Assembly: GCA_944383295.1 (NCBI GenBank)
Contig: CALWOW010000035.1
Location: forward strand, 1-63,321
Length of the DNA stretch: 63,321 nucleotides
Source: an uncultured Clostridia bacterium
GTDB lineage: Bacteria > Bacillota > Clostridia > Christensenellales > UBA1242
Direction of reading: 5' to 3'
Shown here piece after piece: positions 13,745 to 42,305 of the stretch. The translations under genes and the position numbers were made by a program. The notes beneath the pieces are model-generated. The model saw nothing but the letters and a program-made list of their open reading frames with translations. It made no database searches and was not told the origin of the DNA. Each line of letters starts with the position of its first letter. The stretch's first letter is position 1.

Positions 13745-13745
13745 T

Positions 13746-20600: not shown

Positions 20601-23600
20601 TCAAAATATACCGACAGTTTACCAATAGGAAAAGAATTTGGCTCTAATTTTAGTGGAACACTTGATACATATAGATATGGAACAAACAACAAATTTTCGG
20701 TTGTTGGTATTCAATTAAATAATACCTTGATAACCGAAAATGAAGTTTTGGGCGGTCTTTTTGGTAAAATTAGTGGTAAAATTTCAAATATAAACTTTAC
20801 ATTTACCTCATCTCAATTTGATTTAACAAATACAGTTGCAGAAATTACAAACAATGTACTTTCGGTAAGAGATATTTATTTAGGCTTGCTTGCTGGTAAA
20901 ATAGAAGGTAATACTGTTGAGCAAAGTCTTGAAAATGTTGAGGTAAAATTAAGTAACTACGAAGATAGGACTTTGTATATATACGGTATAGATGATGCTG
21001 AATACACTATTTATTTTGGTGCAGTTGCTGGTAGTGTAAGTGGTAATTTATCAACTGTTTATACTGAAATTGCAGTTCAGTTAGATGTGGAAGCAACTAA
21101 AACTTTCGTTGGTGGTTTGGTTGGTGAATTTACAGGGGCTAGACTAGGACAAACTACTGATACATTAAGCAAAGTAAAAATTAACGTTATTCGTGACGAT
21201 GTTTATAGCGATGGAAGTGCGATAGGTGGGTTGATAGGTGTAATTTCAAAAGATTCAACAATTTATTCACAAAACGTAATAGGTAGTATTGTTGCAACTA
21301 ACAGTATAAATGTAGGTGGTTTAGCTGGAATCAATTTGGGTACTTTGGGGTTATTTGAAAACAACACAGAGTATAGAGTTCTTGCTGGCGTTAAGATACA
21401 AGGTTATAAAAACATAGGTGGCTTGATAGGACTTAATAACGGACAAGATGAAAATGTTGGTATTATAAATTATGCTCGCGTGGAAAATTATGAAACTACA
21501 GGTTTAACACCTACACAACAAGCGCTTGCTATCGGTATAGAAAACGTTGGTGGTTTAGTCGGTCAAACATTAGGCGGTCGAATTACATATTCTTATGCTA
21601 TGAGTTATGTAAAGCAACTTACAATGACTAAATATGGTACAGGCGACTTCTATGGCGATGTAGTTGGTGCAAGTAATGTTGGTGGATTTATAGGGCTTGC
21701 TAAAAATGTTTACATTATGAGTTGCTTTGCAAAATCTAATGTTCAAATTGTCACTGATTTAGGTGCATTTGAAAATTATGCAGGCGGTGGTTTTGTTGGT
21801 AAATATGAAATCGAGGGCGTAGTTAGTTTAGCAAATAGCGTAATTTTGAATAGTTATGCGCAGGGCAAAATATTAACAAATAATACAAATCTTAACGAAA
21901 CAGGTGAATTAATCGGTTATTATCAAGTACCTGAAACAAATAGTGCTAATTATGTTGATACTTGTTATGCTCATGTTATTATTACAAATATTTCTGGCGA
22001 AAATGAAATAGTAGGGCGTAACTTGATAGGTACAAATGTTAGAAACGCTAATGTTTCAAATTGCTTCTATTTGGCGGATACTACCGATACAGATTCCGGT
22101 GCGGTAAGCAGTGAAGATATGGTGGTTAATTTTGAAAAGGGTGACTACAATACAAAGGTTTCTTACATAGGTTGGAGCTTTGGAGATAAAGATTCGACAA
22201 GTGCTTGGGTAGAATATGACCCTACTCTTGACATGGTGGGAGTAAACGACGATTTACCACTTTTGTATGATTATGACCGTTCTTGGCTTTATAATCAGGC
22301 TATCACAGATATACAAGTTACTGCTTTAACCTACAAAGATGATGAAGACTTGCTTCCAACATATTTTCAATTTAATGGTGCAGGCGCTGCTGCTAGTGTT
22401 GTAGTTTTGGAAAATATTGATTTAGATGAAAACGGCAATAAAAGTTTGTATCTCTACAACACAAATGAAACTCGTGGTATGTTCGAAATTCAAGTTTTAC
22501 CTGAAATTGACCCAGAAAAATGGAGCATTTCAGTTACATCTTCTAACTATGCAATAGCTGAAATTCAACAAAATAGTTTAAATCTTTTGAATGCAAAAAT
22601 AATATTTAAGCGTACAGGTTTGGTAACGATTACTTTCCAATCTTTACTTGATGTTAGTGAAAAACAAGAAGTTTTGATAAATGTTATAGGTGGTTTCTCT
22701 AACTACGACTTGTTAGATGAAAACGATAACTCATTAATTGCAGACGGGCAAAATGAATTATTGATTAAAAAAGGATATGGTAAAGTTTTATTACCAATCT
22801 TTACGACAAGGGAATATACAGACAGTTTAGGTTTAAAATATGAAACTGTAAGCGCTGATTATTTTGATTTTGTAAATTATCCTTTTGAAAACGGTAGTAC
22901 TTATGTTCCTACAAGCACAGCGCACTTATTAAATGGTAAAGAGTCGATTGACTATCAAGAAGTTTTTGTAACACCTTATGTTGCTTTGAATTTTGGTGAT
23001 GGAAAAACTTACAATCATGTATTTACGGAATTGAAAAAGAATTTCTATGTCAAAGTTTATAATGGTATTAGTTCGGCAGGTTTAAGTGCAAAAGAAGCCA
23101 CATTAACGAGTAGCGAAAATCTTACAATAAAACTCGAAGTTGTAACAGATAATACCGCAACTGTTCAAATAGATGAGCCAATTATTTACAAAAATGGCGC
23201 TGACACACCTTTACAAGATAATAGTGAAGTTTTAACTGCTTTACCACAAAATAGTGAAGAAAATATCACAGATGAATTAATTACAAATAGATATTTATTA
23301 CAATTAGATGAAAGCAATAGGGCGTTGACAAGTCAAGTTGCGTATGAGATTTTGTTTAATGTTTATGATGAAAATGGAATATTGTACGGCACTTATACCT
23401 TTAATTTAGTGTTTATACCTTCGCCTATTATTCGTGTAGATATATCACATTACACTTACGGTGTAGAATCTATGGAAAACGGTGAAGTGTCCAGCAATTT
23501 GATTTCACCAGGAACAAAAGGGTTATTAAAAATTGAAACAACACCTTATTACGCTTATTATGATTATATGCTTGTATCTAGTTCGATAGACAATGCAACA

Positions 23601-26600
23601 GGTCAAAAAGTGCAATTAATGCAAGCAGTAAATCAAAACGGTAAATTTAAAACTCTGGAAGCGCAATACAATCAAAACGGTGCTTTGATTACTCAAAAAA
23701 TAACAGGGTATGACAGTACAGGCAATGCTTATTTTAATGGAATAATATATGTTGTTACATTAGTGGGTAGCAATTTGTTGGAAGGTACGAGTTTTATTGT
23801 TTCGGCAACCGCTATGAGAAATGGTGAAAGTGCGTACGTTTTCCCTCCAACTCAATTCAATCTCATTACAACTTTTGCTCCTTATGCAACACTAACTCTT
23901 GATAATTCAAACGGTGATACTGTTGCGAGAGGAACAGTTGCAAACTTCCGCTTGCAAGGAATACTATATAATAGCACTATTACAGTATTGAGTGCTGATT
24001 ATGGTTTAGGCTTAGATTTAACAAAAACCCAATTATGCGTGTTTGGTGATGTTCGTAAAACTTTTGGGAATGGACAAAAGGAAAATGTAGATATCTTAAT
24101 TCCGTTCTATGTTGGTATTTTGGCTAGTCCAAATAACTCAAAAATAACTATTACATTACAAATTGATTCTACAACCTCTACGGGTGGTATGTTAAATCCT
24201 TTGATTTTGCAATACACGATTTATATCGTAGATTATGCTATTGATAGTGTTTATGTAAACGATGCACAAAGTGGTGTGTTAAATGCAAGTATTCGTACTT
24301 ATAGCACCTTACAAGCAGGTTGGAATTTAGTTACCCCAAGTATTACTGACTTTGAAAATTACATCGGGGCAAGCGAAGAAGACCTTGAAAACTTCCGTGT
24401 TGCTCGTGATGCAATTTTGGAAAGTGCAGAGCGCAAACTTAGTTTGATTAATGGTCAAGGTGATGGACAAGGCGGAGTATGGTGGTTTAATAACGGTACA
24501 GGTTATACAACTATTCAAAGTGCTTATTCTTATACTGATTTTATAGTTAGTTATACTACTATGAATGATGGTAATTCTTATTACATTATTAAAGGTAAAA
24601 ACTTAACTTCTAATTTGGACTTTAAGTTGTACTATAAAGGTTATTATGTATATGATGCCTTAAATAACTGCTTCTGCTTTACACTTGAAAGTGAGTTGAC
24701 AGGTGTGGCTTCGCAAGATATATTGGCTAGTTATCAAAATATTTTCGAACAATTATTTAGGGTAAACATAATAAACAATACAACAGATGATACTCCAGAC
24801 TTAGTTGATTCGGTTGAAAAATTCCGTTCAATGACCGAAGGTGCAAGTTATATGCTTACTACTGACTTAGTATTAGATAATTGGACACCTATCAATACTG
24901 CAATTACTTCATTAGACGGTAATGGACATATTATTTACTTGCGTAGTTTTGCACAAAATACAAATACAGGTACAGTAAATTATGGTTTGTTTGATACTTT
25001 GCAAAAAGGTACAGTGCTTAAAAATCTAATTATTGATGTATCGAATAATATCTTTGTTGATTTACAAAATACAAGCAATGTAAACTTTGGCTTTATTGCT
25101 GGTGTTAATGATGGCGGAATAATTTATAACTGTGATGTAGTTGTGACACAATCAAAAGAAAATTGGACTACTATTTACAACAATACAACTCATATAGCAA
25201 GTAACAATTCAAATTTCGCTTTTGCAAGTTCTATTTTTAATCAAATGTTACAAGGCAAAGACCAGTATGTTGATAACAACACTTTGGCATCAACCTTCAT
25301 TTTGACTGATAAATCTTCTACTAGCAATGTAGTTACGACTTATATTGGTGGGCTTGTTGGTGTAAATTCTGGTTATATTACAAATTGCCGTATAGGTAGA
25401 GTAGATGGAAATATATTAGGCGTTGACAGAGTAGATAGGAAATATGCTCTTCAAGGTATCAATATTTTCGCATCAGGTAATGTTGGTGGACTTGTGGGGC
25501 AAAATAATGGTGTAATTTCAAATAGTTATTTTGCAAATGGAACAGTTGTAAATTACAGTATGTCAATATTTAGTCAAACCAACCAAAACGGAGCGAAAAC
25601 GGGTGGTTTAGTCGCAGACCAAACTAGCGCAGGTAGAATAGAATCTAGTTACGCAGTGGGGCAAATAGGTGATACTGCACAAGCAAGTCTAGGTGGTATC
25701 AAGGCATACGGTACAATCGGTGGTTTGGTGCATTCAAATGCAGGAAGCATCAAGAATAGTTATGCAAATATGCCACTTTCAAGTTCGAATGCAATGGGTG
25801 GTTTTGTATATCAAAATACAGGTAAAGCAAGCGTAGAGTACTGCTATTCGATGAGTAAAATAAATAGTTCGGGCTTGATAAATGGTGTCTTTACAGGTGT
25901 TGACCAAGAGGGTAATGTTCTAAACAGTCAAGAAAGTGTTGTTAAGAATTGTTACTATCTAGCGACAGACAATAATTTTGTAGATGCTAATGAGCCAGCA
26001 ACTGCAATTTCTTCGTTAGAGTGGAGTAATGCGCAAGGTGTTGCGTTTGATGGCTTTGCTATAGCAGATAATGAAACAAGTACTTGGTATATAAATGCAG
26101 AAAAAACTTACTTAGGTCCACAATTAAGATTTGCAGATAAAGTAATGTATTCATTCCGTAGTGAAGATTATACTTATGATAGTACTTGTGTATTAGGTAG
26201 CGAAAGTAATCCTTTAATCATAGCTGACATTGAAGATTGGCAAAATATCTTCTATTATCCAGATTTAGGTGGCACAATGCGTTCACCATATATGGATGTA
26301 AATCCTAATTATTCAACGGGTGGAGCGCAATATGTGTTTGGTGATTATTATGTAAATCTTGTTGCCGATATAGACTTTGGCGAATCAATGCATTCAACAA
26401 GCTATGACACAATTTTTGAAGGTAAATTTTTCGGTAATGGCTATAATATAACAGGCTTAAATTATAGGCAGACAAGCAGTATTACAACAACTAGAAAAGA
26501 TTTTGGGTTGTTTAATAGTATAGAAAACGGTTTTGTAACTAACTTAAATATTAATGTCGCAAACGAAATCACTATTCGTGCAAGACACGTTGGTACTTTG

Positions 26601-29600
26601 GCTGGGTCGGCAAATAATGTTTATTTAGAAAATATAACTATTAGCGGACAAACCACAAATAGTTATATAACAGGGTTAAATATGGTCGGCTCTTTGGTCG
26701 GATTAGTGCTAGGCGATAGTGAAATAAGGAATATTCAATCAAGTATTTCTGTAAACGCGATTAGCGCAACAGCAACTTCGGGTTTGTATAATTACTATTA
26801 TCGAAGTGCTTTAAACAAAGCCGAGTCTGATTTCTCTTACGCAGGTGGTATTATAGGTGTTGTTGATTTGAATGAAGAAGAAAATTCGGAACAAAATCCT
26901 AGAATACAAAATTTAGTAACTCGTGGCAATGCTAATATTTATGGTGAAATTGCGGGGGGTGTGTTAGGTTTATTAGATAGCACATCGGAAGCAAAACAAC
27001 TTGAATTTATTATTGAAGCAGACACTCAAAGCGATATTAATCCAAACATTCGAGGCAGTAATTTTAGCGGAGGCTTGATAGGTGAAAACCGTGGTCGTTT
27101 GTTAAATTCTCGTATAGGTTTGAAAATTAATACCCAAATTCAAATTGATACAAACATCTCATCTACTGACAATGCAAGAAATTATATAGGTTATACAGGT
27201 TTATTTGCTTCAAATGATAAATCAACTGCAGTTGGTGGACTTGTTGGTTTAAATGCTGGTGGCTGGATAAATAATAGTTACTCTCGTGCAACGGTGTATG
27301 CAAACAATGCTTACATTGCGGGAGGTATCATAGGACTTGCTATAAACGCACCTAATAGTTATGTACCAACAGATAACGATGCAACATTAAAATACTTGCG
27401 TAACTTATCAAATATTGAGAATGTATTTAACGATACGGGTATGGTTTATAGTCTTGAATCTTCAAAGATAAAGACAAAAGGTACTTTCTCGTTTAGTGCA
27501 ACTTTAAAAGAAGTATACACAACAGGTGCGGTCAATGCTGAAAAAGTAATTGGTGGCGTTGTAGGGGCAAATATAGGTGCGCCAATGTTTGCAAATTCAA
27601 CTGAAGCATTAATCGCAGGCATAAATAATTTTGATGCGCAAGATTTAACCTTTACTTCAAAACTTGATAATGCAGATTATTATATTGGTGGTTTAGTAGG
27701 TTATCTAGGATTTAAAGTTAATGATACAAATGAAGGTGTTGTACCTTTGGTAAGTTCTTTTGAAATAAGTGGCGAATACAGTTTAGGAACGGCTAGTCAA
27801 AAGTCCAAAGTAGTAGGAAGTGTTGCTGGTAAAAATATCAAAACTATAGGTAATGTAACAAATCCTAATCATACTACAAGCACAATAGATTTCTTGACTG
27901 TTGCAACAGATCCAGAAGATAAAACTTTTGATGGATTTAACGAAACAGTTTGGAATATTGACAAGACCAAAACAAGTCATCGTTTTGCAATTTTAAAAGC
28001 ATCTTATTCAGCAACAGTATCAAATATTGAAACTGCTCAACAGTTATTAGAATTTTTAAGTAATACAAATACAAATAGTTACGGTAAAATAGTAAAAGAT
28101 AATTTGGTAGTTACAGGAACAGATTGGGCAAATTATGTAGTTGATACTAAAAATTCTAAATACACTATTGCTACTTCTATGGATGAAGCGGTAACAGGTA
28201 GGTTGGAAGGTGCTGTTCCTTACACAGTAGAAGGTCAAAGTACCACAAAATCAGCAACGGTTATTTTTAGAGACTTTTCATCAGCACAAGCAAAAGCGTT
28301 TGATTCATTGTTTGGTTTTACAAAGAATTTTAGAGTTTTAAATATAAACTTTGTATTTGAATTTACACCAGACTTGACAGAAAACGGTGTAAATGTTACT
28401 AAAAATCCTATTTCAAACTTTGGTTTGTTAGCGCAAGAAAGTAATAGTACTTATTATGAAAACATTTCATTGACTTTCAACAATGACAATACTTTAAAAA
28501 CAAATAATTTAGAGAATTTGGCATTGATTGTAGGTTTGGCGCAGTCTTGTAACTTTACTAATGTTAATGTAAATGGTAAGATTGAAACTATTGAAAATTA
28601 TTCAAGCACAAGTGCAGTAAATATCGGTGCTTTGTTTGGACTAGGTAAAGTTACAAATACAATCAGCGGTACAACTTTTGGTAATTTTGCTTTGAATTAT
28701 ACATCAAATAATAATTATTCATTGAATTTTGGTGGCTTGGCTGGGCAGGCTGATGGTATTTTGAATGTTCGCGGAGTTGTGCTTGAAAAACAAAACAACC
28801 TCAATGTTGATATTACAGTTACGGCAAACAATAATACTAATGCTTTAAATATTGCAGGTGTTGTTGGTAACATAACAGGTACAGCAAGACTACAAAATTT
28901 TGTAGTTGACGGTGAAATTTCAATTAATAGAACTAATGGTCAAGATAATTCAGTTTCAAATATGGCTGGAATTGTTGGTTCTACTAAAAATACAAATATT
29001 GCTAATGTAACAAGTTTGGTAAATATTTCGGGTCAAGTAAATGGTGGCAGTGTTTATGCTGGTGGAGTTGCTGGACAGATTATAAACGAACAAGAATTTA
29101 CAGGCACAGGCACAACAATGCAATTTAGCGGATACTTAACAGAGTATGTTACAAACAAAGGTAATATTAGTTTGCAGGCTAATTCAAATAATTCTATATT
29201 TATAGGCGGAATATTTGGATATGCAGAAAATGATTTGATTTTGGCAAACTCAAAAGTCGTACCTAGTGGACAACCTAGATTAATTTACAACGGTTTGTAT
29301 AGTAGCGGAAAACTTCAAGTAAGTTCGGCAAGTAATAGAATTTATGCTGGTGGTTTAATTGGTAGTGTCGTTCAGGGAAGATTGCAAGGTGTTGACGGCT
29401 ATGTTGAATTAGACAAGCCAAATAATATCTTAAAAATTTCCGATAGCGCATTTATGGGACAATTATTAATTGAAAACCTTCAATCATCGAATAGTTATAA
29501 TGCATTGGGCGGTATTGCAGGTAATACACAATTAGCAATAGCAGACAGTTTGTCTAATGGTGTGGTATCGTTTGATGCAGAAAATGCAATTTCAATCTAC

Positions 29601-32222
29601 GCTGGTGGAATGGCTGGAATTACAAACAACGACATCACTTATTCAATAACCACTACATCAGTGCAAGCAAGAGTACAATCTGTTGAAAACATTTCGGCAA
29701 TAGGTGCTATTTGCGGATTGCAACAATATGATAATTCAAGAATTGTTTACACATATTATAGTGCAGAAATGAGTGGCTTGTTGGATAACTTTGGTACAAA
29801 CTTAACCGCAATGCAAATGCTAAATGCGGATAACTTTAAAGTTAATAACGTACAAGTGCTGACTACTGACAAATGGACTTTTGCAACTGAAAGTGATGTA
29901 AACGGAAATGCGCAACAATGTTCTATACTTTATCCAAAAGCAGTTGCTAACAATATTGACACCGCACGTGGTGGATATGTTACTCCATACATAATTCAAG
30001 ATTTGGATATGTTAGAAGGTTTAATGGCTGAAGATACTCAAACAGAAAAAACTGTTATATTTGATGTTGAAGAAATAAATATAACGCAATTACCAAAACT
30101 TGAAATTTCTAATGTAAGAAAAATTATTGGTAATGGCTTAAAAATAATTGTAGCTCCATCAAACTTTGTTGGAAGTGTAGATGCAAATATTGGTTTATTT
30201 GCTGAAATACCTAAAAATGTAGTAGTTTCAAGTATTACACTTGATATAAGTCAAATTTCGATTCGTACAAGTTCAAACTTTAATTTTGGTGGTATTGCTG
30301 GAACTAACAACGGTGGTATTTATAATTGTATCGTTGGCAGTTTGACAGCTTATACTCCAAAAATAAACTACGCTTCAAACTTTGTAGATATAAAGACAAA
30401 ATTTGAAGATAATTTTGCAGGGTTAATTGAAAACAGTCAGTCAATATTCAAATTTGAATTAACTGATACAAGCAATTCAAGTTTAGGTACTTTGGTAGGT
30501 GTAAACAAAGGTAATATCTTCGGTTCATTCGTAATTGCTGATATAAGCGTAAACAATGCTTCAACAGGAGAAGTTAACCTAGGTGGAATTGCTGGGAAAA
30601 TGCAAAATTCTTGGTTAAGTAACTCAATATCACAAGGTAGAGTTATCATTAAAAATGTAACAAACAGTAGTAGAGTCGGTGGCGTTGTTGGGCAAGTAGT
30701 TGGAGGCAGAATTGATGCCGTACTCGCTAACTCAAATGTAATGACCTTTGATGGAAACAAAAATTATACGGGTTTTGCTTTTGGGTTGTTTAGTGGTATT
30801 TCAAACGGAGTAGTTGTAAATCAAGATATTAGCGGAAACTTATCAATAAATGATGTTAACAATTTCTACAACAGTACTTTAACAACTGCTGAATTGCTAG
30901 CTGGTAGCAAGTTTAATAACATAGTTAAAAATTCTGTTAACCAATACAACAATATTTGGGTTGTGGGAGATACTGTAAATAATTACGGCTATCCATATTT
31001 CAACACATTGAAAAATATTTCTCTAAATACTGGTGATGGTACTATAAGCAATCCTTATCAGTTAAGGGAAGGAACGGAACTAATTCGTGCGACTATGTCA
31101 AATGCAACAGGAAAGCATTTTGTATTAGTGAGAGATTCTATGATATCCAGTGCGATTTTGGAAACCACATCAAAATCAACTGTATATGCTAAAACATTAA
31201 GTGGCGATGGCCATATCGTATTAGTAAATAAGTATATTGAGCCAAGTTCAAGTGGTGGCACTCTCAACATAGGCCTATTTAGAGTGATTTCGGAGCAAAC
31301 TAGCGTCAGCGGTTTGGGAGTTGTGTTTAACGAATTTACGATAAATAATACTGCTACAATTAATTTCGGTGGAATTGCTTGCGAAAACAAAGGTACAATT
31401 AGTAATTGTAGCGTCGTTGGATTAGGGGAAATTAATCTTGCTTCATTATCTAATAGTAAAATAGGTGGACTTGTAGGGCAAAATAGTGGAGGCATTCTAA
31501 ACAGTTGGGCAGATATTGACTTTGAAGTAAAAGATGGTTTTGTTGGTGGTCTTGTAGGACTTTTGGGAAAAGGTACTTCAGCAAATACTGAAAGTACGGC
31601 TTATATTAGAAATTGTTTTGCAAATGGCAACATAACTGCAAATCAAGATACTTCAAAAACATCATACAAGCAAACCTCAATCGGTGGACTTGTTGGTCTT
31701 GCAAACGCTTATTTGTCTTCGGGTAGAAGTATAGAAAATTGCTATGTTTATGGTAGTAAAATACAAGTAGCTTACACAGGTTCGTATGTAGGCGCATTGA
31801 TAGGTAATGCTGTGAAGTTTAACACATATAGGACTTATGCTTATGTGTATACACCTGGTAGGCTAGATACAGGAAAGTTAGGCGCAGGTAATTACGAAAA
31901 TCTTGCAATGACAGGAAACGTAATAGAAGGCGCATACGACAACACAAGTATAATTGCGGTTTGGTTGGGCGTAAATCAAGGTGAAGTAGGTAGCAGAAAA
32001 ACCGAAAATGATTTGTGTCCTGTTACAAGTGTAAGTATAATGAGAAGTACTGCAATAGGTAGTGGTTGTTATGCTGAATGGATAACATCAAACTGGACAA
32101 GAAATATGGGTGTTGGTAATATGAACGAATACTTACTGTACTTAAATGAAGTAACTCCTATCGATAAACAAGAAACTAACTCAAGCGATTTAAGTGCTGA
32201 AAGTATCTTTGAGTACTTTTAA
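17655..32222 (+). CDS. Giant lipoprotein (4855 aa) with Ig-like repeats and multiple GLUG-type beta-helix modules; putative adhesin
   Basis: Lipobox LVG-C23, Big_2-like segments (e.g. VTAKGAGTTVMRVTS, VTGLKDGTTDLTI), many GG(L/I)(V/I/A)G motifs, and repeated NPY.I module heads. Confidence 0.8.
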   Translation: MKSKYFALLLLVISTAFFGLVGCGDSYANLKVEVSTTEISLFDSDDAETNSTLITATVQGASDSMLKDVDFWFKDKNVAKAEVVSLDGNESTIRVTAKGAGTTVMRVTSRENSEIMSEDINVSVYRDAESMTFRDVKPTLEVGSSLKLETGTLISFTPSRVYPNEAVFSMMLPDNPLWNVDYGAAALTGVYIEDNVLYADANAQCGIAQIEAKMANGVSCAVYVMIYKSIDETAFTLYNGADEVDSLKFAINSDELNSATLTIFINDAEQNYVIRTETTDDILVAATPDEFGDFDVSVMDSGFTQLVINVDLINPVTNGVYKTFSRYYDVEIVRIAKQVIVSGPNTVATSEPVTMYVQDYYENISGSEAHILVSPPEAKDCSYEIKVLEIDGSSEGIDEKLDSLLILVSGRTYVNIKDYLGYLPYEYGELLRNDTSFYVALNGDQIKESVKLSIQANTYDDALPIVTNEITFIVKAGVREITPSTDKLEVAVDGSAGFSVDFTTSKGENIGNPTFTFEFKDSEIAKIENDPNEAYAYIVTGLKDGTTDLTIRADNGFAITITVAVYLNLTDFYLTTDRMYENSNIAEETWNAEDYVNEIDGLYDKGVTHLTVKQNATLTVSCVYAPVGSDKNSVKVYLATYDTDGTYISLSDLNAENKFSFYARKATPKDEPVQIIVRFSFNKQIDNGVWEQVIGERILYVTVYTPLSVYYWNGTNNQKNITEQLYDKNSLYYEQQDLASVELSTFINTNATVFQNGGTIEWTVQDEDLISISANGTSAKITANLDPVLNPLSRYETYVYASVVEYGKRTTLTCKVIILKPQLVESITVTNFKQAEGIRLNDLGGEKRTTFTLNTVVSPKNVFNSNLGYKIYNAEYGEGSIPVATTPFEGAEDEAIIQLDPNNPSKIIAKKAGIAVVRIYPLDRIISPDTELSPAWYVDVWVVVEDGVLNPYSIYTAEEFIAIGSSAQALTKNYVLMQTIDLSKYTDSLPIGKEFGSNFSGTLDTYRYGTNNKFSVVGIQLNNTLITENEVLGGLFGKISGKISNINFTFTSSQFDLTNTVAEITNNVLSVRDIYLGLLAGKIEGNTVEQSLENVEVKLSNYEDRTLYIYGIDDAEYTIYFGAVAGSVSGNLSTVYTEIAVQLDVEATKTFVGGLVGEFTGARLGQTTDTLSKVKINVIRDDVYSDGSAIGGLIGVISKDSTIYSQNVIGSIVATNSINVGGLAGINLGTLGLFENNTEYRVLAGVKIQGYKNIGGLIGLNNGQDENVGIINYARVENYETTGLTPTQQALAIGIENVGGLVGQTLGGRITYSYAMSYVKQLTMTKYGTGDFYGDVVGASNVGGFIGLAKNVYIMSCFAKSNVQIVTDLGAFENYAGGGFVGKYEIEGVVSLANSVILNSYAQGKILTNNTNLNETGELIGYYQVPETNSANYVDTCYAHVIITNISGENEIVGRNLIGTNVRNANVSNCFYLADTTDTDSGAVSSEDMVVNFEKGDYNTKVSYIGWSFGDKDSTSAWVEYDPTLDMVGVNDDLPLLYDYDRSWLYNQAITDIQVTALTYKDDEDLLPTYFQFNGAGAAASVVVLENIDLDENGNKSLYLYNTNETRGMFEIQVLPEIDPEKWSISVTSSNYAIAEIQQNSLNLLNAKIIFKRTGLVTITFQSLLDVSEKQEVLINVIGGFSNYDLLDENDNSLIADGQNELLIKKGYGKVLLPIFTTREYTDSLGLKYETVSADYFDFVNYPFENGSTYVPTSTAHLLNGKESIDYQEVFVTPYVALNFGDGKTYNHVFTELKKNFYVKVYNGISSAGLSAKEATLTSSENLTIKLEVVTDNTATVQIDEPIIYKNGADTPLQDNSEVLTALPQNSEENITDELITNRYLLQLDESNRALTSQVAYEILFNVYDENGILYGTYTFNLVFIPSPIIRVDISHYTYGVESMENGEVSSNLISPGTKGLLKIETTPYYAYYDYMLVSSSIDNATGQKVQLMQAVNQNGKFKTLEAQYNQNGALITQKITGYDSTGNAYFNGIIYVVTLVGSNLLEGTSFIVSATAMRNGESAYVFPPTQFNLITTFAPYATLTLDNSNGDTVARGTVANFRLQGILYNSTITVLSADYGLGLDLTKTQLCVFGDVRKTFGNGQKENVDILIPFYVGILASPNNSKITITLQIDSTTSTGGMLNPLILQYTIYIVDYAIDSVYVNDAQSGVLNASIRTYSTLQAGWNLVTPSITDFENYIGASEEDLENFRVARDAILESAERKLSLINGQGDGQGGVWWFNNGTGYTTIQSAYSYTDFIVSYTTMNDGNSYYIIKGKNLTSNLDFKLYYKGYYVYDALNNCFCFTLESELTGVASQDILASYQNIFEQLFRVNIINNTTDDTPDLVDSVEKFRSMTEGASYMLTTDLVLDNWTPINTAITSLDGNGHIIYLRSFAQNTNTGTVNYGLFDTLQKGTVLKNLIIDVSNNIFVDLQNTSNVNFGFIAGVNDGGIIYNCDVVVTQSKENWTTIYNNTTHIASNNSNFAFASSIFNQMLQGKDQYVDNNTLASTFILTDKSSTSNVVTTYIGGLVGVNSGYITNCRIGRVDGNILGVDRVDRKYALQGINIFASGNVGGLVGQNNGVISNSYFANGTVVNYSMSIFSQTNQNGAKTGGLVADQTSAGRIESSYAVGQIGDTAQASLGGIKAYGTIGGLVHSNAGSIKNSYANMPLSSSNAMGGFVYQNTGKASVEYCYSMSKINSSGLINGVFTGVDQEGNVLNSQESVVKNCYYLATDNNFVDANEPATAISSLEWSNAQGVAFDGFAIADNETSTWYINAEKTYLGPQLRFADKVMYSFRSEDYTYDSTCVLGSESNPLIIADIEDWQNIFYYPDLGGTMRSPYMDVNPNYSTGGAQYVFGDYYVNLVADIDFGESMHSTSYDTIFEGKFFGNGYNITGLNYRQTSSITTTRKDFGLFNSIENGFVTNLNINVANEITIRARHVGTLAGSANNVYLENITISGQTTNSYITGLNMVGSLVGLVLGDSEIRNIQSSISVNAISATATSGLYNYYYRSALNKAESDFSYAGGIIGVVDLNEEENSEQNPRIQNLVTRGNANIYGEIAGGVLGLLDSTSEAKQLEFIIEADTQSDINPNIRGSNFSGGLIGENRGRLLNSRIGLKINTQIQIDTNISSTDNARNYIGYTGLFASNDKSTAVGGLVGLNAGGWINNSYSRATVYANNAYIAGGIIGLAINAPNSYVPTDNDATLKYLRNLSNIENVFNDTGMVYSLESSKIKTKGTFSFSATLKEVYTTGAVNAEKVIGGVVGANIGAPMFANSTEALIAGINNFDAQDLTFTSKLDNADYYIGGLVGYLGFKVNDTNEGVVPLVSSFEISGEYSLGTASQKSKVVGSVAGKNIKTIGNVTNPNHTTSTIDFLTVATDPEDKTFDGFNETVWNIDKTKTSHRFAILKASYSATVSNIETAQQLLEFLSNTNTNSYGKIVKDNLVVTGTDWANYVVDTKNSKYTIATSMDEAVTGRLEGAVPYTVEGQSTTKSATVIFRDFSSAQAKAFDSLFGFTKNFRVLNINFVFEFTPDLTENGVNVTKNPISNFGLLAQESNSTYYENISLTFNNDNTLKTNNLENLALIVGLAQSCNFTNVNVNGKIETIENYSSTSAVNIGALFGLGKVTNTISGTTFGNFALNYTSNNNYSLNFGGLAGQADGILNVRGVVLEKQNNLNVDITVTANNNTNALNIAGVVGNITGTARLQNFVVDGEISINRTNGQDNSVSNMAGIVGSTKNTNIANVTSLVNISGQVNGGSVYAGGVAGQIINEQEFTGTGTTMQFSGYLTEYVTNKGNISLQANSNNSIFIGGIFGYAENDLILANSKVVPSGQPRLIYNGLYSSGKLQVSSASNRIYAGGLIGSVVQGRLQGVDGYVELDKPNNILKISDSAFMGQLLIENLQSSNSYNALGGIAGNTQLAIADSLSNGVVSFDAENAISIYAGGMAGITNNDITYSITTTSVQARVQSVENISAIGAICGLQQYDNSRIVYTYYSAEMSGLLDNFGTNLTAMQMLNADNFKVNNVQVLTTDKWTFATESDVNGNAQQCSILYPKAVANNIDTARGGYVTPYIIQDLDMLEGLMAEDTQTEKTVIFDVEEINITQLPKLEISNVRKIIGNGLKIIVAPSNFVGSVDANIGLFAEIPKNVVVSSITLDISQISIRTSSNFNFGGIAGTNNGGIYNCIVGSLTAYTPKINYASNFVDIKTKFEDNFAGLIENSQSIFKFELTDTSNSSLGTLVGVNKGNIFGSFVIADISVNNASTGEVNLGGIAGKMQNSWLSNSISQGRVIIKNVTNSSRVGGVVGQVVGGRIDAVLANSNVMTFDGNKNYTGFAFGLFSGISNGVVVNQDISGNLSINDVNNFYNSTLTTAELLAGSKFNNIVKNSVNQYNNIWVVGDTVNNYGYPYFNTLKNISLNTGDGTISNPYQLREGTELIRATMSNATGKHFVLVRDSMISSAILETTSKSTVYAKTLSGDGHIVLVNKYIEPSSSGGTLNIGLFRVISEQTSVSGLGVVFNEFTINNTATINFGGIACENKGTISNCSVVGLGEINLASLSNSKIGGLVGQNSGGILNSWADIDFEVKDGFVGGLVGLLGKGTSANTESTAYIRNCFANGNITANQDTSKTSYKQTSIGGLVGLANAYLSSGRSIENCYVYGSKIQVAYTGSYVGALIGNAVKFNTYRTYAYVYTPGRLDTGKLGAGNYENLAMTGNVIEGAYDNTSIIAVWLGVNQGEVGSRKTENDLCPVTSVSIMRSTAIGSGCYAEWITSNWTRNMGVGNMNEYLLYLNEVTPIDKQETNSSDLSAESIFEYF

Positions 32223-32256
32223 ATAAGAAAACCGCAATATGCGGTTTCTTATTTTT
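32221..32256 (+). terminator. Intrinsic terminator of the giant lipoprotein gene
   Basis: AAATAAGAAAACCGCA / TGCGGTTTCTTATTT hairpin followed by Ts. Confidence 0.75.
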
Positions 32257-32261
32257 ATAAT

Positions 32262-32294
32262 AAAAAAGTATCCATATTTTTAGGATACTTTTTT
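32262..32294 (-). terminator. Intrinsic terminator of the rho-like gene
   Basis: AAAAAAGTATCC / GGATACTTTTTT hairpin abutting the stop codon. Confidence 0.7.
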
Positions 32295-33535
32295 TATATT
32301 TTACGAATTGTTTCAGCATAAGTTTTATCTTTTTCAAAAAATTCCAAATCACCTTTAACATATGCATCATAATTCAATTTTATATGACAATTACATAAGT
32401 CATCTAATTGCTCTACATATTCATTAAAAGTATCAATAGAGCAGTGTGATGTTGCGCAAATAATAGTCAAACTACCGTTTTGAGTGTTTTTGCTTAATGC
32501 AAGTAATTTTTTAAATTGTTGCAAAATATCATCATAATATTCTTGTACATTGCTACTTCTTTCACTTAAAATATTACGAATTGTTTGCATTAGCATAACA
32601 ATATCATCAATTATTAAAATTGCATTTTCACCATTTTCACACAATCTTTTTGCTCGTTCGTATGCCAATTCGTAATAAAGTAACAAATCTTGTGGAAGTG
32701 TATCAAAAGTAGTAAATATATAATCTACTTGGTCCAAATAAATTCTTTCTTCTGGGCGCTTGCTAGTAGCAAGGAAGACAACCGCATACTTACGTTCCAA
32801 ATCTTTTGCAATACTATTTGTCAAATAAGTTTGTCCGCTACCTAATTTTCCGCTTATCATTACACGTTGCCCAAGATGTATAGGGCATATGTTATTTAAA
32901 AATTGTAGTTGTGGTAAATCAAACTTAATTTGTTCACCAAGAGAGCAGGGAAGTAAATTATCAAAGTTTACTCTTTTAATTTCTGCGGGATTTTGCTGAT
33001 TGATTTTGATAATTTTAGTTACAATAGGTTTTGTATTTTTATTTTCTACAATACACTCGACATAGTCTGTTTCGTGAATTTTGTTTGCATAAGTTACAGA
33101 AGGGTCAACAACCACATAAGAAGTAGTGTCTATTTTACTCAAAGTACCTTTCATAATGTAAAGTGTATTATTTATTTTTTTTGCGATACCACTAAAAACA
33201 TTATTTTCAATCTGTTGTTTGCTACCAGCAGTAGAACAAAAAGTTCCAAAAATGCTATTTGAATTACCAAATGTATAGTTTATGCTTGAATCATAGCCAA
33301 CAACTTTATTCCAATCTTCATCAGGTATAATTTCACGCCTATGAGGTCTGCCACTTTTTATTTTTTCATATGGCTCAATTTGACCTTTAACAACCATTTT
33401 TATAGCGTTTCTTAATTCTTCTGTCTTCATTGCAGTAGGGTTTTTAACACCTATTTTTGAGCCAACTTCACGTAACTGATAAAGATTAAGAGAAGAAAGT
33501 TTATTAATATCAACATTATATTTTTCTTTTGTCAT
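32294..33535 (-). CDS. rho: Transcription termination factor Rho homolog with degenerate ATPase motifs, 413 aa
   Basis: GGAG RBS before ATG 33535. Rho_N-like start (LYQLREVGSKIGVKN...EELRNAI), GQRVMISGKLGSGQT, KRPEE, ILIIDD and NGSLTIICAT align with Rho motifs, but key residues are substituted. Confidence 0.75.
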   Translation of the reverse strand: MTKEKYNVDINKLSSLNLYQLREVGSKIGVKNPTAMKTEELRNAIKMVVKGQIEPYEKIKSGRPHRREIIPDEDWNKVVGYDSSINYTFGNSNSIFGTFCSTAGSKQQIENNVFSGIAKKINNTLYIMKGTLSKIDTTSYVVVDPSVTYANKIHETDYVECIVENKNTKPIVTKIIKINQQNPAEIKRVNFDNLLPCSLGEQIKFDLPQLQFLNNICPIHLGQRVMISGKLGSGQTYLTNSIAKDLERKYAVVFLATSKRPEERIYLDQVDYIFTTFDTLPQDLLLYYELAYERAKRLCENGENAILIIDDIVMLMQTIRNILSERSSNVQEYYDDILQQFKKLLALSKNTQNGSLTIICATSHCSIDTFNEYVEQLDDLCNCHIKLNYDAYVKGDLEFFEKDKTYAETIRKI

Positions 33536-33557
33536 TTTTTTCTCCAAATTCGATATA

Positions 33558-33631
33558 ATTTTATCATAGTGTATATTTTTTGTAAACAATTTTTGCAGTT
33601 TTTTACAAAAAGTTACAAAAAATTACAAAAA
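33558..33631 (-). promoter_or_regulatory. SigA-type promoter of the rho-like gene with phased upstream repeats
   Basis: Minus strand TTTACA-17 bp-TAAAAT with extended TG; TTACAAAAA at 33603, 33613 and 33623 (10-bp period). Confidence 0.5.
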
Positions 33632-33649
33632 TATAAAAACATAATATAA

Positions 33650-33681
33650 AATAAAAAAGACCATGATGGTCTTTTTTTATT
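33650..33681 (-). terminator. Intrinsic terminator of the 2790-aa gene
   Basis: AATAAAAAAGACCA-tga-TGGTCTTTTTTTATT overlapping the stop codon. Confidence 0.75.
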
Positions 33682-36600
33682 ATCTTACTTTCATACGTGT
33701 ACGCATTAATACAAATGTGATTATCAACCCAATGACAACTACTACTGCTACTACAATAAGTATAATTGCTGCAGTATTAAGTGGGACAGTAATGGTGATT
33801 CTGTTACTTGTCAATATATTTCCACTTGCAGATTGTAATTGTATTACGTATACATTAGGGTCTGAGTATGTAAATATTAGAGGTTCAATATTAGAGCCAT
33901 TCTCTGCGTTAATTGCTAAAACTTGAGTATTGTTTACTACCAAGAAGCAATCGCCAACTCTTTCGTAAATGCTAGCAGGGTTGATTGTAATAGTAAAGCT
34001 ACCTGTGCCCGAAGAACCCCAACTACGGCTTGTATTGATTATAGGCTCTTCGTTATTAATCCAGAAGTTGAATGTATAATCTTGACTTGGATTGTATCCC
34101 GAACCAGCATAGCGAACTGTTACTTCGTATCTACCAACACCAAAATTATCAGGGTCAACATAGAATGTGTAGATCTTGGCATTGTCACCACGAACTAAAT
34201 CAGTTATATCCGTTCCAGAACGTACTATTTTTATAACTTCATATCCGGTCATTGATGCAAATTCATAACTTGCTAGTGCTTCCGTACTTGAAAGAAGCGT
34301 AAATTGATAATTTGCTAGTAAATCTGCAGAGTTTGTACCTACTATAGATTTTATCGAGCCACGCATTGAAACATTATATACTCCAGGCTCAGTAAATATA
34401 TAATGACCATTTGTAGGAGCGAGTGAGTACTCAACATTATTTCTTGTGATAGTAACTGCCATTGAGTCATATTCACTCAAATCGCCAGAGAATGTTAGAG
34501 GAATATAAATATCTACAGGTTGAGAGTATGTTGCATATTGAATAGGGGCAAGGTTATTTACGTAAAATACAACATCATTAATAATTGTTAGGGTAAACTC
34601 ATTGTATCCCGAGCCAAAGTATTGATTTTGTCCAACAGCATCATAAATTCTAATTTTGTAAATTCCTGATTGTGTTAAGGTAATGCTTCCGTTGGTGTAA
34701 ACTCCAACTTTAACTCCATTGTACCAAAGTTCGAGATTGTAAAAATCAGCATAGATATAGTCGTATGTATCACTTTCAACTACTGAATTATCTTCGTATG
34801 TAGTTTTCCAGGTTAAAGTAGCTTTTGCTGTTTCAGTGTCAGTTTCCTTTGTGTAAATGTTTTTAAGTTCAGTGGTCATCGTTTCGCCGTTAATTCTAAA
34901 ATCAGTACTTGACGAAATATTGTCTGAAGGAATACGAGTAACCGCAAAATATGTGCTGATTATATGCGTTGTTGTACCATACACATTATAAACTCTAGTA
35001 TTTCCAAATTCTGCTATTTGTCTGTAAGATAATCCTTTGTCTTCATTACATATTATTTCTATTGTTCTAGACCATACACGGTCGGAACTTAAGAAGAAAT
35101 AATGTGGCATTGTGTAATTTACTCCAAGTATAGTGCAACTATAATCTACGCTATGTGGCGTAAGAGGTGTTGTCGTGTTATCCGAATTTATTTGATTTAC
35201 ACCATAAATTGCTACCGCATATGACCTAATTGTAAAGGTTTGACTTCCGCTAACAAATTTTCCTAATGAATTATACAAGTTGACTGTATAAACTCCTTCT
35301 GCTTCTACTGTTGTAGGGGAAGTGATGACGGTTTCGACACCATTTGGACTAACTAAAGTAACATAAGGTGAGAACAATGCATCAACGTCAACCCAACTAA
35401 TCAAAACTGATTTTGATGTTACTTGATTAAGAAGAGGTGAGCCAGCTGTGTCAGTTAAAGCAATTCGTGGGAAGTGAGTGTAGATAATGAAACTATAATT
35501 AGTTGCTGTGTCAGTGTAATTATCAACTGATATGTTTATTAGATAATTAATATTGATAGGAGCTCTAAACGTTAGAGTAGTAATACTTTGTGTCCAATCA
35601 TCAAATTCATAACCAAAATATTGTGAATTTGTATCCAAATCTTGTATTATATCACCAGCAACATTTGTATAGAGTACTGTATTAGTATCTAAATCGGTAA
35701 TGCTTAATTGTATTCTTAAAGCATTAGAATCATAAACAAACTTTGTTTCACTAGAAGTATATGTATATAATTTCCCATCATAAGTTTGTTCAGTTGTTGC
35801 ACCACTGTATTCCAAGTATTTTACAATAGAACTGTCAATAGGATACGAGAAACTTGTTGTTCTGCCAAAGTTATCTACAAATTCAAATTTATAAATAATA
35901 TTTGAGCCAGAAGATAAGTTAAATATAAATCCATTTGCAATACTAGGCGCATCAAAATCACTTTCTTTTGTTGGTAAAGGTGTTAATTTAGAGTCAGTAG
36001 ATTGCAAAGCACCATTCAAATAAACTCTAAATGCTACAATTTTTGTAGATAGGGTAGTACTAGGTAACTTAATAGTAAATGTATTGTCAGCATTTATAGT
36101 TATTAATTGAAGGAATGCATCTGCATTTGGTACAAGTTCCAATCCTGGAGTGTTGATGTAGAAGTTGATGTTGTTTGAAGAATCAATTCTATCATCAATA
36201 GTTACTTGTATTTGACTTCCATATTTGTCAAAGTTTTCTTGTGCGGTTTTTTCAATAAATGCATTTAATTCGGTAACTATGTCTGCTAATGAAGTGAGTA
36301 ATGTTCCTTTAAACATTGACACATTTGACAAAGTATTTTCTGGTGCAAGATAATATGTTTTTTCAGTTTGATTCATCAAATCTTTAAAGGTAAATCTTAA
36401 CCAAGTGTCTGCATTTGAAATAGTTTCTACTCTAAAGGCTTCGCTATTAAATACTTTTTTAGCATCTTTTGTATAATAAACATTGTTATTGTTATAAACT
36501 ACAGTTCCGTCATTTATGTTGGTATTAAAAATATAGTGTTGGTCGCCGATAGATGCGTTGATTTCGTTTATGCTATCTGTTACATAAACAGTATATACAC

Positions 36601-39600
36601 GCATATTGCCCGCTTTGTCTTGCTCGATAATATCATAATAACCGACTTCATTTATGTATGTTAAACCTTCTGTTGAATCGTTTACTTTATATCTTGCTAT
36701 CTTGTAATTAGGGTTAGTAGGGTCAAATATGTTTGCAGCACCCGAACTACTTCCTGTTTGAGATTCAATTACAGTTTGTTGATTAGGATTTCCATTATAA
36801 TTTTCTCGTTTAAAGAAGTAATAATTTAATCCTGTTTCATACTCGTTTAAGTAACTTAATATAAAGTTTTTAGGTACAGCAAAGGCATAAGATTTCAAGA
36901 ATGTAACATCAGGGTTGTCGATATTATCAATTAGGTACTGTGTAAAATTATTTCCTTCACTATTTAAAGATTGTAGATAAATATCATTTTCAATTAAATT
37001 TACTAAATTTTGATATGGGGCAGTGTTATCTACATAAACAGTTTGTGTAGTTTGGAAATATGATGTATCGCCATTAACAATATAATCATTGTTATCCTTT
37101 GCAATATATTGAACTGTTGCAGTGTACTCGACATCGACTAATTTATCTCCATACAACGATTGATTTTCATATTCTGCTCTTGGCATTAAAATAAAGTAGT
37201 TGTAAACATCATTTATTTTAATTTTATAAAATTTAGTTTCGCTTAATACATTAGTTGTCATTGAAGCATTTAACAATTCATCAAAATCTTGAAGCGTAGG
37301 TCGATAAATAAATGTAACATTTTCAATTTCGCCATCGGTTGCAAGTAGTTTGTTGTATTCTTCTTCGTCGTAAGTAAGCAAAATAGGATTTTGGTAAATA
37401 TGGCTAGACTTGCTTAAACCTATACCTTCATTACCATCAGCATCTATTTTAGGATTGTTTTTTGTATAAATTGTTTTAGTGACCAAGACGCTATTAAATG
37501 CTATTTGAGCGCTATAATCATCTGTAGGGTCAGTCCAACTTATGCGCACATTCTTGTCGTTTGTAATATTGTTGTAGGTAGTATCTATATTTGTAAACGA
37601 ATTATCACCGCTTTGGAAGTTAAATGCAGGAGGTACACCTGTTATTTCAAAGTTGAATATTGTGCAGTTAGGGGATAAACTACTACTGTAAGTAAAACTA
37701 GCAAAGTCATAACTTGCATTACCTGTAAGCACGCCTTGGAAGTTTGCTAAATCAAATAACATTATGCGATATCTTCCAACGCCCTTAAATGCATATTGTA
37801 ATTTATCTAGTGATTGACAAGCATCAGTATCGGTTGAGTTTTTATAAACGTTGGAGTAGAAAGTTTGACTTGTATAAGCATAACTTGTACCTGTCGTGTG
37901 TCTAAAGAATTGCACTACAACTTGCAATCTCGACGAGTTGCGATATTTATCAAAAATACTATTTAAATACTGTGTTGCTTCACCGATAGTCAAATCGTTT
38001 GAAGGGGCAGTATAGTATTTGTCGTAAATACTTGCACTATTAGGGTCAGGGATTGCGCCTTCGCCACTATTCAAAACGCTTTCTTTCCAAGTGCTCATAT
38101 AAATACTTGCAGGTAAAATATTTGTATCAATAACAATATTAGAAGGTAGGGAAGGGTCACTTGTGTTTAAACCTAATTTAATACTTCCGTTAAAGGTATC
38201 AGTATTAGTAGTACGGCTAAATTGATTGAAATAATTGCCACCATAATCTGGATAACCTTCATATTCACCTTTATCGTATCCTAATTTTAATATTATGTCG
38301 CTTCCATAATCGCTTGTAGAACTTGGAATAATTGCGTTACGGTCTAAATAGTAAACATATTCTTTAACTTTAACATCACCGCCCGCTTCGGCACTGCCTT
38401 CTTCAAAATTATCATTGTAAGTACGAGTAATTACATACATACCTTCGGAACTAGCCGTTCCATTATTGAACGCTTGTACATAATCAATAGGTAACAATAC
38501 TTTAGTTTGATAATAAATTGCGCCGTCAGGTGAGTTTACAGTATAAAGCGCTGAATAGTTTTCTGTTAGACTATACAACACCGTTGTTGTACCTACATCA
38601 GCATAAGGATAGTTTTTATTTTCCTTGTTATACGAGAAAGGATAATAATTTAGGACAATACTTGAAATTTTAAAGTATTCTGCAGGCTCTGTCCAACTAA
38701 ATGTTATATATCTGCGATTAGTAGAGAAACTATTTGAAACAAGTTGTCTGTTGGTAGTGTTGCTTTCTGTTCTGCTAGAGGTGAGGTCTGTTCCAAAACT
38801 ATCTTCAAAAGAGTTGTAGCTATACAACGCCCCACGAGAACGGTCAAGGTTTACTTCAACTGTAAAACGTTCGTTATAGTTGCCAATAATATCACTAACA
38901 AGGAAAGTATAGCTAAATTGTTCATTAGTTAATTCGTGAAGTGGGTGGCTATTAGCATCTGGTTCTTTACCGTCAGGGTAAATTTGTGTTGTGTAAGGTT
39001 TGTTTGGTTCATCCACAGAAGGTGCATTTACTTTTACCACGGCATACCAGTTATGTGCCTTGTTTTCGCTATCAATATAAGGGACAATATTTGCATCATC
39101 TCTTGTATCCGAGTAAATTTCTACACGGTCAAGTTGGAATACAATGCTTTTTGTTTGTGAAATATTCATTGCGTTAAAGGCATTTTTAATAGTTTGACTA
39201 GCAGTATAAGTTTGATTTGATAAAGTCCAAGTGTAATCATTGTTTACAAAATCAAAGATATCGCTTATCGAACCGCTCACGCTTGCAACATCTGCTATAC
39301 TCAATGATTTATGAGTACCCCAATAGAAAGTCGTATCTTCAGTAATAATGTTTACAAAAGCTGTTTGTTGTGGCTTTTGCAAAATTTGAGTTTTAGTTGT
39401 GTCCAAAATTGTAGCAAAGATTTCAGTGTTTCCAGCTTCATCGGCAAGCAATAAAATAGCAAGTTGAGGTGAAGAAATTATTTGTGAAGATGCTAAAGGT
39501 GTATTGAAATTAGTTGGGTTTACCTTGTAATAATCAACAGGTGGGGTAAAACCGCCAAATTCTCCATTTGTTTTCATCAAAACAGCGCCGTTTTCAGCCA

Positions 39601-42052: not shown

Positions 42053-42261
42053 TTTTTAATGTCCCCCTTTTTTATGCCCGAAAATTAAGTCCACAAATAA
42101 AACAATTTTATAATAATTATTTTATCAAATTGTTATAAAAAAAACAAATGATTATCGCTAATAAATGACATTTTTTGCAAAATTAAGCACAAAATATAGT
42201 TTGCAAATATTTTTTGTTTTTTTAATAAAAAAATACATAAAGTGTCTAAATGTAAAGAAAA

Positions 42262-42295
42262 ATAAAATCAGCCCTTAAAGTAAGACTGATTTTAT
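42262..42295 (-). terminator. Intrinsic terminator downstream of virD4
   Basis: ATAAAATCAGCCCT / AGACTGATTTTAT imperfect hairpin just after the virD4 stop. Confidence 0.6.
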
Positions 42296-42305
42296 AAATT
42301 TTAAG

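Follow-up and report, generated by a model that had tools for sequence, protein, structure and literature searches.

What might a Rho protein be kept for once the residues of its motor have been replaced? This question is raised by a gene in a stretch of 63,321 nucleotides (assembly GCA_944383295.1, contig CALWOW010000035.1, positions 1 to 63,321; hereafter the window) from an uncultured Clostridia bacterium of the Christensenellales; UBA1242 lineage. The accepted view of Rho is that of an RNA translocase which is obligately driven by ATP. The gene occupies positions 32294..33535 of the minus strand (coordinates including the stop codon), where all of its features given below also lie unless both strands are stated, and encodes 413 amino acids in a frame without internal stop from the ATG at 33535-33533 to the TAA at 32296-32294. 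An earlier inspection of the letters (the sequence-only reading) had taken the product for a catalytically dead Rho, kept as an RNA-binding scaffold or as a dominant-negative regulator. Here, we consider it highly probable that the protein is no RNA motor and is under selection, and we are much less sure of its specific mode of action. With moderate confidence, we favour the explanation that Rho has here become a protein without motor function whose N-terminus binds nucleic acid.

The best NCBIfam matches of the protein were two Rho equivalogs, TIGR00767 (76.4 bits, cut-off 509.45) and NF006886 (80 bits, cut-off 315), so that both scores lie below the equivalog threshold; for nine family-level homologs, the Rho models scored far below cut-off or gave no match. 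Pfam PF00006 (ATP-synt_ab) was above its gathering cut-off (43.3 vs 29.5 bits, E 4.3e-11, residues 212-389), and it also matched 15 of the 21 members of a family-wide alignment (A2; sequences 17-54% identical). A phmmer search against solved structures returned Rho chains exclusively (11 distinct sequences, best E 5e-14). When an AlphaFold2 model built from 20 orthologs (pLDDT 81.9, pTM 0.74) was used as the query, the top Foldseek matches were all Rho, with E values down to 5e-19, and VIA-align superposed model residues 107-412 on residues 36-370 of E. coli Rho (Z 30.0, rmsd 3.0 Å, 299 residues), followed by F1/V1 subunits at Z 23-24. Furthermore, hhalign against canonical Rho gave a probability of 99.9% (E 8.6e-36, residues 8-390). 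These results bear out the homology proposed from the letters. The protein is thus a Rho by descent and fold, yet it stands outside the family's own score criteria. Its protein-atlas neighbours were unnamed or Rho-family clusters of Bacillota, and one ortholog is publicly annotated as a "hypothetical protein".

The model, Foldseek, VIA-align and hhalign indicated the three-domain architecture of an N-terminal helical bundle, an OB fold and a RecA-like domain. The Rho_N helical domain (residues 9-50; 33386..33511) comprises model helices 10-15, 18-28 and 38-49. The sequence-only reading had listed this domain, and the evidence for it is mixed: hhalign paired residues 8-50 with canonical Rho_N and 9 of the 21 relatives in A2 matched Pfam PF07498 (Rho_N) at E <= 0.01 (best 1.1e-8), whereas the protein itself scored 14.1 bits against a cut-off of 24.9 (E 0.047). 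The OB-fold domain (residues 111-180; 32996..33205), with five strands between 113 and 178 in the model, superposes on E. coli Rho from residue 36 of the latter onward; Pfam Rho_RNA_bind gave no match in this protein and matched 7 of the 21 wider relatives at E <= 0.01. The RecA/F1-like domain (residues 200-390; 32366..32938), recognised by ATP-synt_ab, carries a degenerate active site. Several Rho motifs are still present, namely GQR preceding the P-loop, P-E-E following the catalytic position, an STFD-like segment, the Walker B aspartate and the GSLT(I) strand.

For the functional roles attached to the E. coli Rho residue numbers used here, we take those of the Rho structural literature to hold. 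The residues were read from an alignment of 21 orthologs (34-99% identical) with E. coli Rho (NC_000913) and canonical Rho from elsewhere in the order (six proteins, all outside the family). In the former P-loop, GKLGSGQT (residues 229-236; 32828..32851), Gln235 stands for the Walker A lysine (CAA codon at 32831-32833, which reads TTG on the plus strand); the corresponding segment in the order's canonical Rho is APPKAGKT. K184 was replaced by glutamine in 21/21 orthologs and the P-loop lysine K181 was also lost, with G229 and G234 invariant. The segment SKRPEE (residues 258-263; 32747..32764) replaces DERPEE, and Lys259 therein occupies the position of the catalytic glutamate E211, which is lysine in all 21 orthologs; D210 before it was lost, P261 and E262 were invariant, and the arginine valve R212 was Arg or Lys in 16 of them. 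The Walker B aspartate D265 was retained in every ortholog as Asp310, and the following S266 was Asp throughout (Asp310-Asp311; 32603..32608), in the context of DDIVML instead of DSITRL, with R269 lost. The Q-loop residues K283 and T286 were lost, T286 falling in a gap in 16/21 orthologs, as was the R-loop lysine K326. The four substitutions listed in the sequence-only reading (GQT, SKRPEE, DDIVML and LDDLCN) are therefore all real. Its identification of FKGTGN as the R-loop was mistaken: LDDLCN does stand in place of FKGTGN, but the R-loop lysine of E. coli Rho lies upstream in TGSKMDE. Judged from these residues, catalysis as an RNA motor has very likely been lost.

The chain also ends about 50 residues before that of E. 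coli Rho, as had been noted earlier, with model residue 412 on residue 370 of 419. The canonical C-terminal subdomain is missing, and the short tail (residues 391-413; 32297..32365) contains Arg410, an arginine located 3-5 residues from the C-terminus in 21/21 orthologs. The arginine finger had been described as absent. Indeed, the finger residue R366 faced a gap in one MAFFT alignment and hhalign left the Arg410 tail unaligned; however, in another MAFFT alignment R410 was one column off R366, and by the structural ranges it was about two residues off. The C-terminal Arg410 may therefore be a candidate survivor of the finger.

This arginine belongs to the evidence for a different explanation, according to which the site was remodelled and nucleotide would be bound or slowly hydrolysed, driving assembly or a switch while no RNA is translocated; the charge of the missing Walker A lysine would then come from Lys259, and Arg410 would be the finger. 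In the genus, the glycine frame G-x4-G of the P-loop, Q235, K259, D310 and D311 were invariant, the residue after Gln235 was T, S, N, D or E (all oxygen-bearing) in 21/21 orthologs, and the RecA-like domain was under purifying selection (dN/dS 0.12). However, the Walker A lysine and the catalytic glutamate have both gone, the Arg410 tail aligns as equivocally as described above, and the P-loop is destroyed in other genera of the family. Among 28 family open reading frames (ORFs) from other genera, K184 was kept in 3, E211 in 9, D265 in 9 and R366 in 1, in an alignment that is approximate for its most divergent rows. Since the gene was kept where the P-loop was destroyed, the function common to the family is independent of the site. 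We regard the remodelled site as an unlikely explanation of the gene as a whole.

A deep profile search yielded 2,677 representatives at E <= 0.001, of which 35 were at E <= 1e-30. K184, E211 and R366 occurred together in 17 of the 168 mapped rows. In six close matches (P0029-P0034, P0037), as in the G020 protein, the Walker A lysine is present and position 211 is already lysine. Because the lysine of Walker A coexists with Lys at 211 in these proteins, there is a hint that the catalytic glutamate was lost first, that is, that E211K preceded K184Q. An ORF in a genome from another family of the order (L021, G031:C3, 6327-7613, minus strand; located between an MBL-fold gene and obg) encodes an independent, intermediate Rho with 192 bits against a cut-off of 509, which keeps GKT but has NARPEE instead of DERPEE and lacks the Q-loop segment. 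From this case, Rho degeneration may have occurred more than once in the order.

The residues of the classical RNA site are lost as well. Of the primary-site residues F62, F64, R66, Y80, E108, R109 and Y110 of the OB fold, 0/7 were conserved among the 21 orthologs, and the OB fold had a mean net charge of -2.2, compared with about 0 in canonical Rho. The RecA-like domain was likewise acidic (-4.8 vs -1.7 in canonical Rho), while residues 1-75 carried +4.7. The proposal of an RNA-binding scaffold is accordingly not supported as far as it relies on the classical site.

Whether a motor-competent Rho exists beside this protein was the next point, as the sequence-only reading had suggested a dominant-negative role and a search of the genome for a second, canonical rho. 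The genome comprises 1,047,912 bases in 48 contigs (97.2% complete, 0.5% contamination, 32% G+C), and a search of it with the Rho model gave a single match, namely this gene, at 75.3 bits, below cut-off; no canonical or second rho was found in it. NusG (163 bits, cut-off 135.7) and NusA (406 bits, cut-off 253) of the same genome both passed, and the low Rho score is therefore specific rather than a sign of general divergence. As the sole Rho homolog of the genome, the gene is presumably the descendant of the ortholog, and thus presumably the only descendant of rho there. The same was observed across the family. Among 121 genomes drawn from its GTDB family, which represent 58 genera and mostly measure 0.8-1.4 Mb, none contained a Rho reaching the canonical cut-off, the best score being 197 bits, whereas a profile of the degenerate forms detected the derivative in 116 of these genomes, in 103 of the 106 of good quality, and in 56 of the 58 genera. 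Of 16 genomes from the rest of the order, 12 contained canonical Rho; these genomes gave one match each, at the canonical gene, with no degenerate second copy. A motor-dead Rho is therefore not a quirk of one genome but a condition of the whole family, found in at least 56 genera. In principle, a subunit with a dead ATPase might poison a ring, and as a dominant-negative or hetero-oligomeric partner it would tune canonical Rho. With no canonical Rho in the 97%-complete genome or in the 121 genomes of the family to be tuned, such a role is excluded for practical purposes, and we give it next to no credence.

The sequence-only reading had also proposed that neutral evolution among orthologs would speak against retention. 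In the one ortholog pair with unsaturated dS (93% identity), dN was 0.039 and dS 0.45, giving a dN/dS of 0.087; this value comes from a single pair because, of the 8 closest pairs, the other 7 had a saturated or undefined dS. By region, dN/dS was 0.026 for residues 1-75, 0.076 for residues 76-200 and 0.12 for residues 201-413, and for the giant genes on either side, this pair gave 0.045 and 0.062. When contigs from four metagenome runs were compared with the frame, 23 differences were found, of which 18 were synonymous and 5 non-synonymous (pN/pS 0.07). These results show that the gene is under purifying selection and is not decaying, and its retention is thereby supported. In 2 of the 4 runs, the A-run that separates the ribosome-binding site from the ATG (33534-33542) was longer by one T/A, a polymorphism of spacer length. 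The stretch was present in 20 sequencing runs of nine studies, DNA or unlabelled and mostly from chicken or other animal gut, and a 21st contained almost nothing of it; no RNA run was among those listed with the stretch, and the runs have no bearing on expression.

A remnant of rho that has no function and is in the course of being lost would nevertheless account for some of the data. The Rho-like proteins of the genus share 33-55% identity, compared with 82-94% for FtsZ of the same genomes, and 5 of the 121 family genomes gave no match. In a quick IQ-TREE maximum-likelihood search, in which long-branch joins were flagged, canonical Rho of E. coli and of the order grouped on short branches and the degenerate forms on long ones, the stem of the genus clade measuring 1.35 changes/site against 0.2-0.6 for the canonical end branches; no canonical lineage emerged from this tree as the source of the derivative. 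Decay is contradicted, however, by the dN/dS and pN/pS ratios, by the intact frame, by the retention of the gene throughout the family, by the conservation of its promoter, ribosome-binding site and terminators, and by 53 invariant columns among 20 orthologs sharing 35-66% identity with this protein. A relic is therefore very improbable. Since the motor residues have been lost yet the gene is conserved family-wide, its role is probably another than classical termination.

Which part of the protein might carry that role was examined by conservation. In the genus, the invariant columns among the 20 orthologs fell into three clusters, of which one spans residues 12-75, one is the former active site and one consists of some core positions, and those of Rho_N were L13, L16, Q20, L21, R22, V24, G25, G29, V30, P33 and T34. 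In the more divergent A2, the invariants were limited to G29, P33, K60, G62, R63, P64, G116 and G222. Four of these positions lie in the motif K-x-K-S-G-R-P (residues 58-64; 33344..33364), which resembles an AT-hook and is situated in a linker that is disordered in the model (pLDDT < 50 at residues 62-66). A GRP core with basic flanks, such as K-Q-G-R-P-P-K, was found in 25 of the 28 family ORFs from other genera; the three without it were short, at a contig end or N-terminally shorter. The part retained by every member thus appears, from these alignments, to be Rho_N together with the AT-hook-like basic motif.

The gene is predicted to form a separate transcription unit with its own promoter, ribosome-binding site and flanking terminators. 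As the sequence-only reading had stated, the frame is intact and accompanied by such signals. A motif scan detected a sigma-A-type promoter (TTTACA-17-TAAAAT, with TG 5' of the -10; 33558..33586), and a matching -35 plus extended -10 layout was found 5' of the gene in 14 of 15 genus orthologs. The ribosome-binding site GGAGA (33541..33545) was read from the sequence, its GGAG lying 6 nt 5' of the ATG. A terminator-like two-way hairpin (33653..33677, both strands) would close the upstream 2,790-codon giant gene and insulate the promoter. Downstream, the terminator region shared with the convergent giant gene (32228..32293, both strands) contains two hairpins: the first was given by the terminator scan at 32228-32248, and the second, GTATCC/GGATAC with a T-run (32260-32288), was recognised by eye directly 3' of the stop codon and is absent from the scan output because its loop is 9 nt.

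Directly 5' of the -35, three direct TTTTTGTAA repeats are spaced by 10-11 bp (33602..33632). Two triple TTTTTGTAA clusters exist in the whole 1.05-Mb genome, the other one being at C13:57432-57456, and TTTTTGTAA and TTTACAAAA motifs recur 5' of orthologs in the genus and the family. The TTTTTGTAA repeats could be a candidate operator or a UP-like element. A regulon of such clusters was considered and rejected, as no common theme was seen downstream of the other nine clusters with at least two TTTTGTA copies.

The repeats, together with the invariant K-x-G-R-P, the basic N-terminus and the low G+C content of the genome (32%), could also be taken to mean that the protein is a nucleoid-associated or autoregulatory protein that binds AT-rich DNA, including its own promoter repeats, and has no role on RNA. 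DNA binding by AT-hook and helix-extension-helix modules is general background rather than a finding at this locus, which weighs against the firmness of this explanation. The repeats are possibly plain UP-element-like A/T tracts or -35-like hexamers, and the lack of a common theme at the other nine clusters does not favour it. Furthermore, excerpts of one report describe the basic linkers of canonical Rho as serving RNA binding (PMC13650167). A purely DNA-directed role thus seems to us quite unlikely.

Our preferred explanation, that of nucleic-acid binding by the N-terminus of a Rho without motor, would run as follows. ATP-driven RNA translocation would have been given up, while the three-domain body of Rho_N bundle, OB fold and RecA-like domain was retained. 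The selected activity would reside in the basic N-terminal module, that is, Rho_N and the K-x-G-R-P of the flexible linker, which would bind nucleic acid, be it nascent RNA or DNA rich in A+T. The body of OB fold and RecA-like domain, which is acidic, would serve as a folded scaffold, probably oligomeric. The setting would most likely be transcription, with the protein acting as an ATP-independent factor on RNA polymerase or its transcript; it would be a permanent counterpart of the open, inactive "stand-by" Rho on elongation complexes and not an RNA-pulling helicase. In its most specific form, with Rho_N and K-x-G-R-P as the working parts, the OB/RecA body as a silent scaffold, and the whole as a factor of transcription or of the nucleoid that binds DNA or RNA, needs no ATP and is perhaps autoregulated through TTTTTGTAA, the proposal is tentative and may well be wrong in its particulars.

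Several points weigh against the preferred explanation. The presumed likeness of K-x-G-R-P to eukaryotic and other AT-hooks is that of a short motif, and Pfam AT_hook gave no match in this protein. The GRP motif was also present in 8 of the 17 canonical-looking Rho matches that keep K184, E211 and R366, and may be an inherited linker feature. The former active site is invariant in the genus, as described above, and looks remodelled rather than abandoned, so that some nucleotide-dependent step is possible. The fast divergence relative to FtsZ fits weaker constraint than that on a core factor, and the dN/dS estimate depends on a single pair. Finally, the missing C-terminal subdomain could alter oligomerisation.

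The relation of the protein to known systems was considered next. It resembles canonical Rho (TIGR00767/NF006886) in domain order and fold, and it differs in that the Walker A lysine is Gln, the catalytic glutamate is Lys, the Q-loop is deleted or unrecognisable, the R-loop lysine, all seven primary-site residues and about 50 C-terminal residues are missing, and it evolves several-fold faster than FtsZ. The non-catalytic F1 alpha and V/A-type B subunits, which come closest as precedents, belong to the same RecA/F1-like superfamily and likewise kept the fold after catalysis was lost; "pseudo-active sites" of V1 are described in part of PMC10624635. In contrast to this Rho derivative, these subunits alternate with catalytic partners in one ring. 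As its genome contains no such partner, any oligomer would be made wholly of the degenerate subunit. With its G-R-P core, which has Lys, Arg and Pro on its flanks and lies in a disordered segment, the linker would be comparable to the AT-hook and the extended AT-hook.

Among published Rho variants, a 2024 survey of 2,784 RefSeq genomes, as far as its available passages go, found the Rho ATPase domain highly conserved, and Rho missing or non-functional in some genomes, including small AT-rich ones (Nucleic Acids Res 52:8979, PMC11347177). The same passages mention "Rho-like" sequences in 421 species, which have a single domain of Rho, or its N-terminal domain together with the RNA-binding one; the derivative described here differs from these forms in being full-length, three-domain, motor-dead and conserved in a family, and no such form appears in these passages. 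The "stand-by" Rho is catalytically inactive and binds RNA polymerase, Nus factors and RNA via its N-terminal face, and the relevance of this complex is debated, according to sections of a 2025 review (PMC12360218). In this way, Rho could act without translocating. The state is a transient conformation of an ATPase-competent hexamer, whereas the inactivity of the derivative would be permanent and genetic. In the full-text literature searched, whose coverage leaves out most subscription journals, we found no description of a Rho that is full-length, has a degenerate ATPase site and is under selection.

The gene is surrounded by exceptionally long ORFs. Those at 17655-32222 (plus strand, 4,855 codons) and 33680-42052 (minus strand, 2,790 codons) have signal-peptide-like starts, and no Pfam family was found in either. 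A locus search with the single protein as query found no relative; an alignment-based scan detected 14 related loci in the genus, with giant genes on both sides in 8, on at least one side in 5 more and on none in 1. The contigs of the relatives come from animal and human gut metagenome-assembled genomes. In other genera, the Rho-like gene lies 3' of sipL-spoIIR-sleB-ypeB in 13 of 28 loci (10/20 plus 3/8), and in 13 of 20 it adjoins a convergent ORF longer than 1,500 codons. An operon with ypeB was rejected: the gaps measured 83-666 nt, several with terminator-like hairpins and sigma-A-like promoters by eye, and the arrangement is therefore a conserved order and not an operon. In the present genome, sipL-spoIIR-sleB-ypeB is on another contig (C8:46317-50578), without a Rho-like gene. 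The canonical rho of the order sits between pyrG and rpmE/DUF1385; tblastn at E <= 1e-5 found neither pyrG nor the DUF1385 protein in this genome, and CTP synthase may thus be absent from it.

The statement of the sequence-only reading that many units end in intrinsic terminators was borne out in part: there were 15 terminator-like sites in positions 1-18000 (8.5 ± 3.1 expected) and 12 in positions 42000-61900 (9.5 ± 3.4 expected). Six of these sites stood directly behind ORF ends.

Other parts of the window and genome were of separate interest. Sporulation and germination genes in the 1.05-Mb genome include a SpoVT-like regulator (12157-12729), sipL-spoIIR-sleB-ypeB and gerAC (C24:4655-5716); 1.05 Mb would be very small for a spore-former. 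A type IV secretion-like gene set at 42306-57226 comprises a VirD4/TraG-type coupling protein (42306-44294, minus strand), a T4SS pilin (44526-44903) and a VirB4/TraG-like P-loop ATPase (49968-52691), with large ORFs of no family interspersed. A protein with collagen triple-helix repeats is encoded at the start of the window (1-750, plus strand), and one with Listeria-Bacteroides repeats at 57601-58545 (plus strand). These repeat proteins and the giant ORFs suggest an elaborate cell surface.

As to the meaning of these findings, the derivative offers a natural separation-of-function experiment, in which the N-terminal face and the body of Rho can be seen without ATP, and it is relevant to the stand-by model, which places Rho on RNA polymerase and is disputed. 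Annotation pipelines would gain a family that is now labelled "hypothetical protein". An abundant group of animal-gut bacteria transcribes without canonical Rho, with NusA and NusG retained. If the most specific form of the proposal is correct, selection can maintain a function of Rho for which no translocation is needed. It may further be, though we hold this to be rather doubtful, that a clade of small-genome, spore-forming gut Clostridia at the level of a family, with at least 58 genera, lives without a Rho motor and has repurposed its only rho as a new kind of protein.

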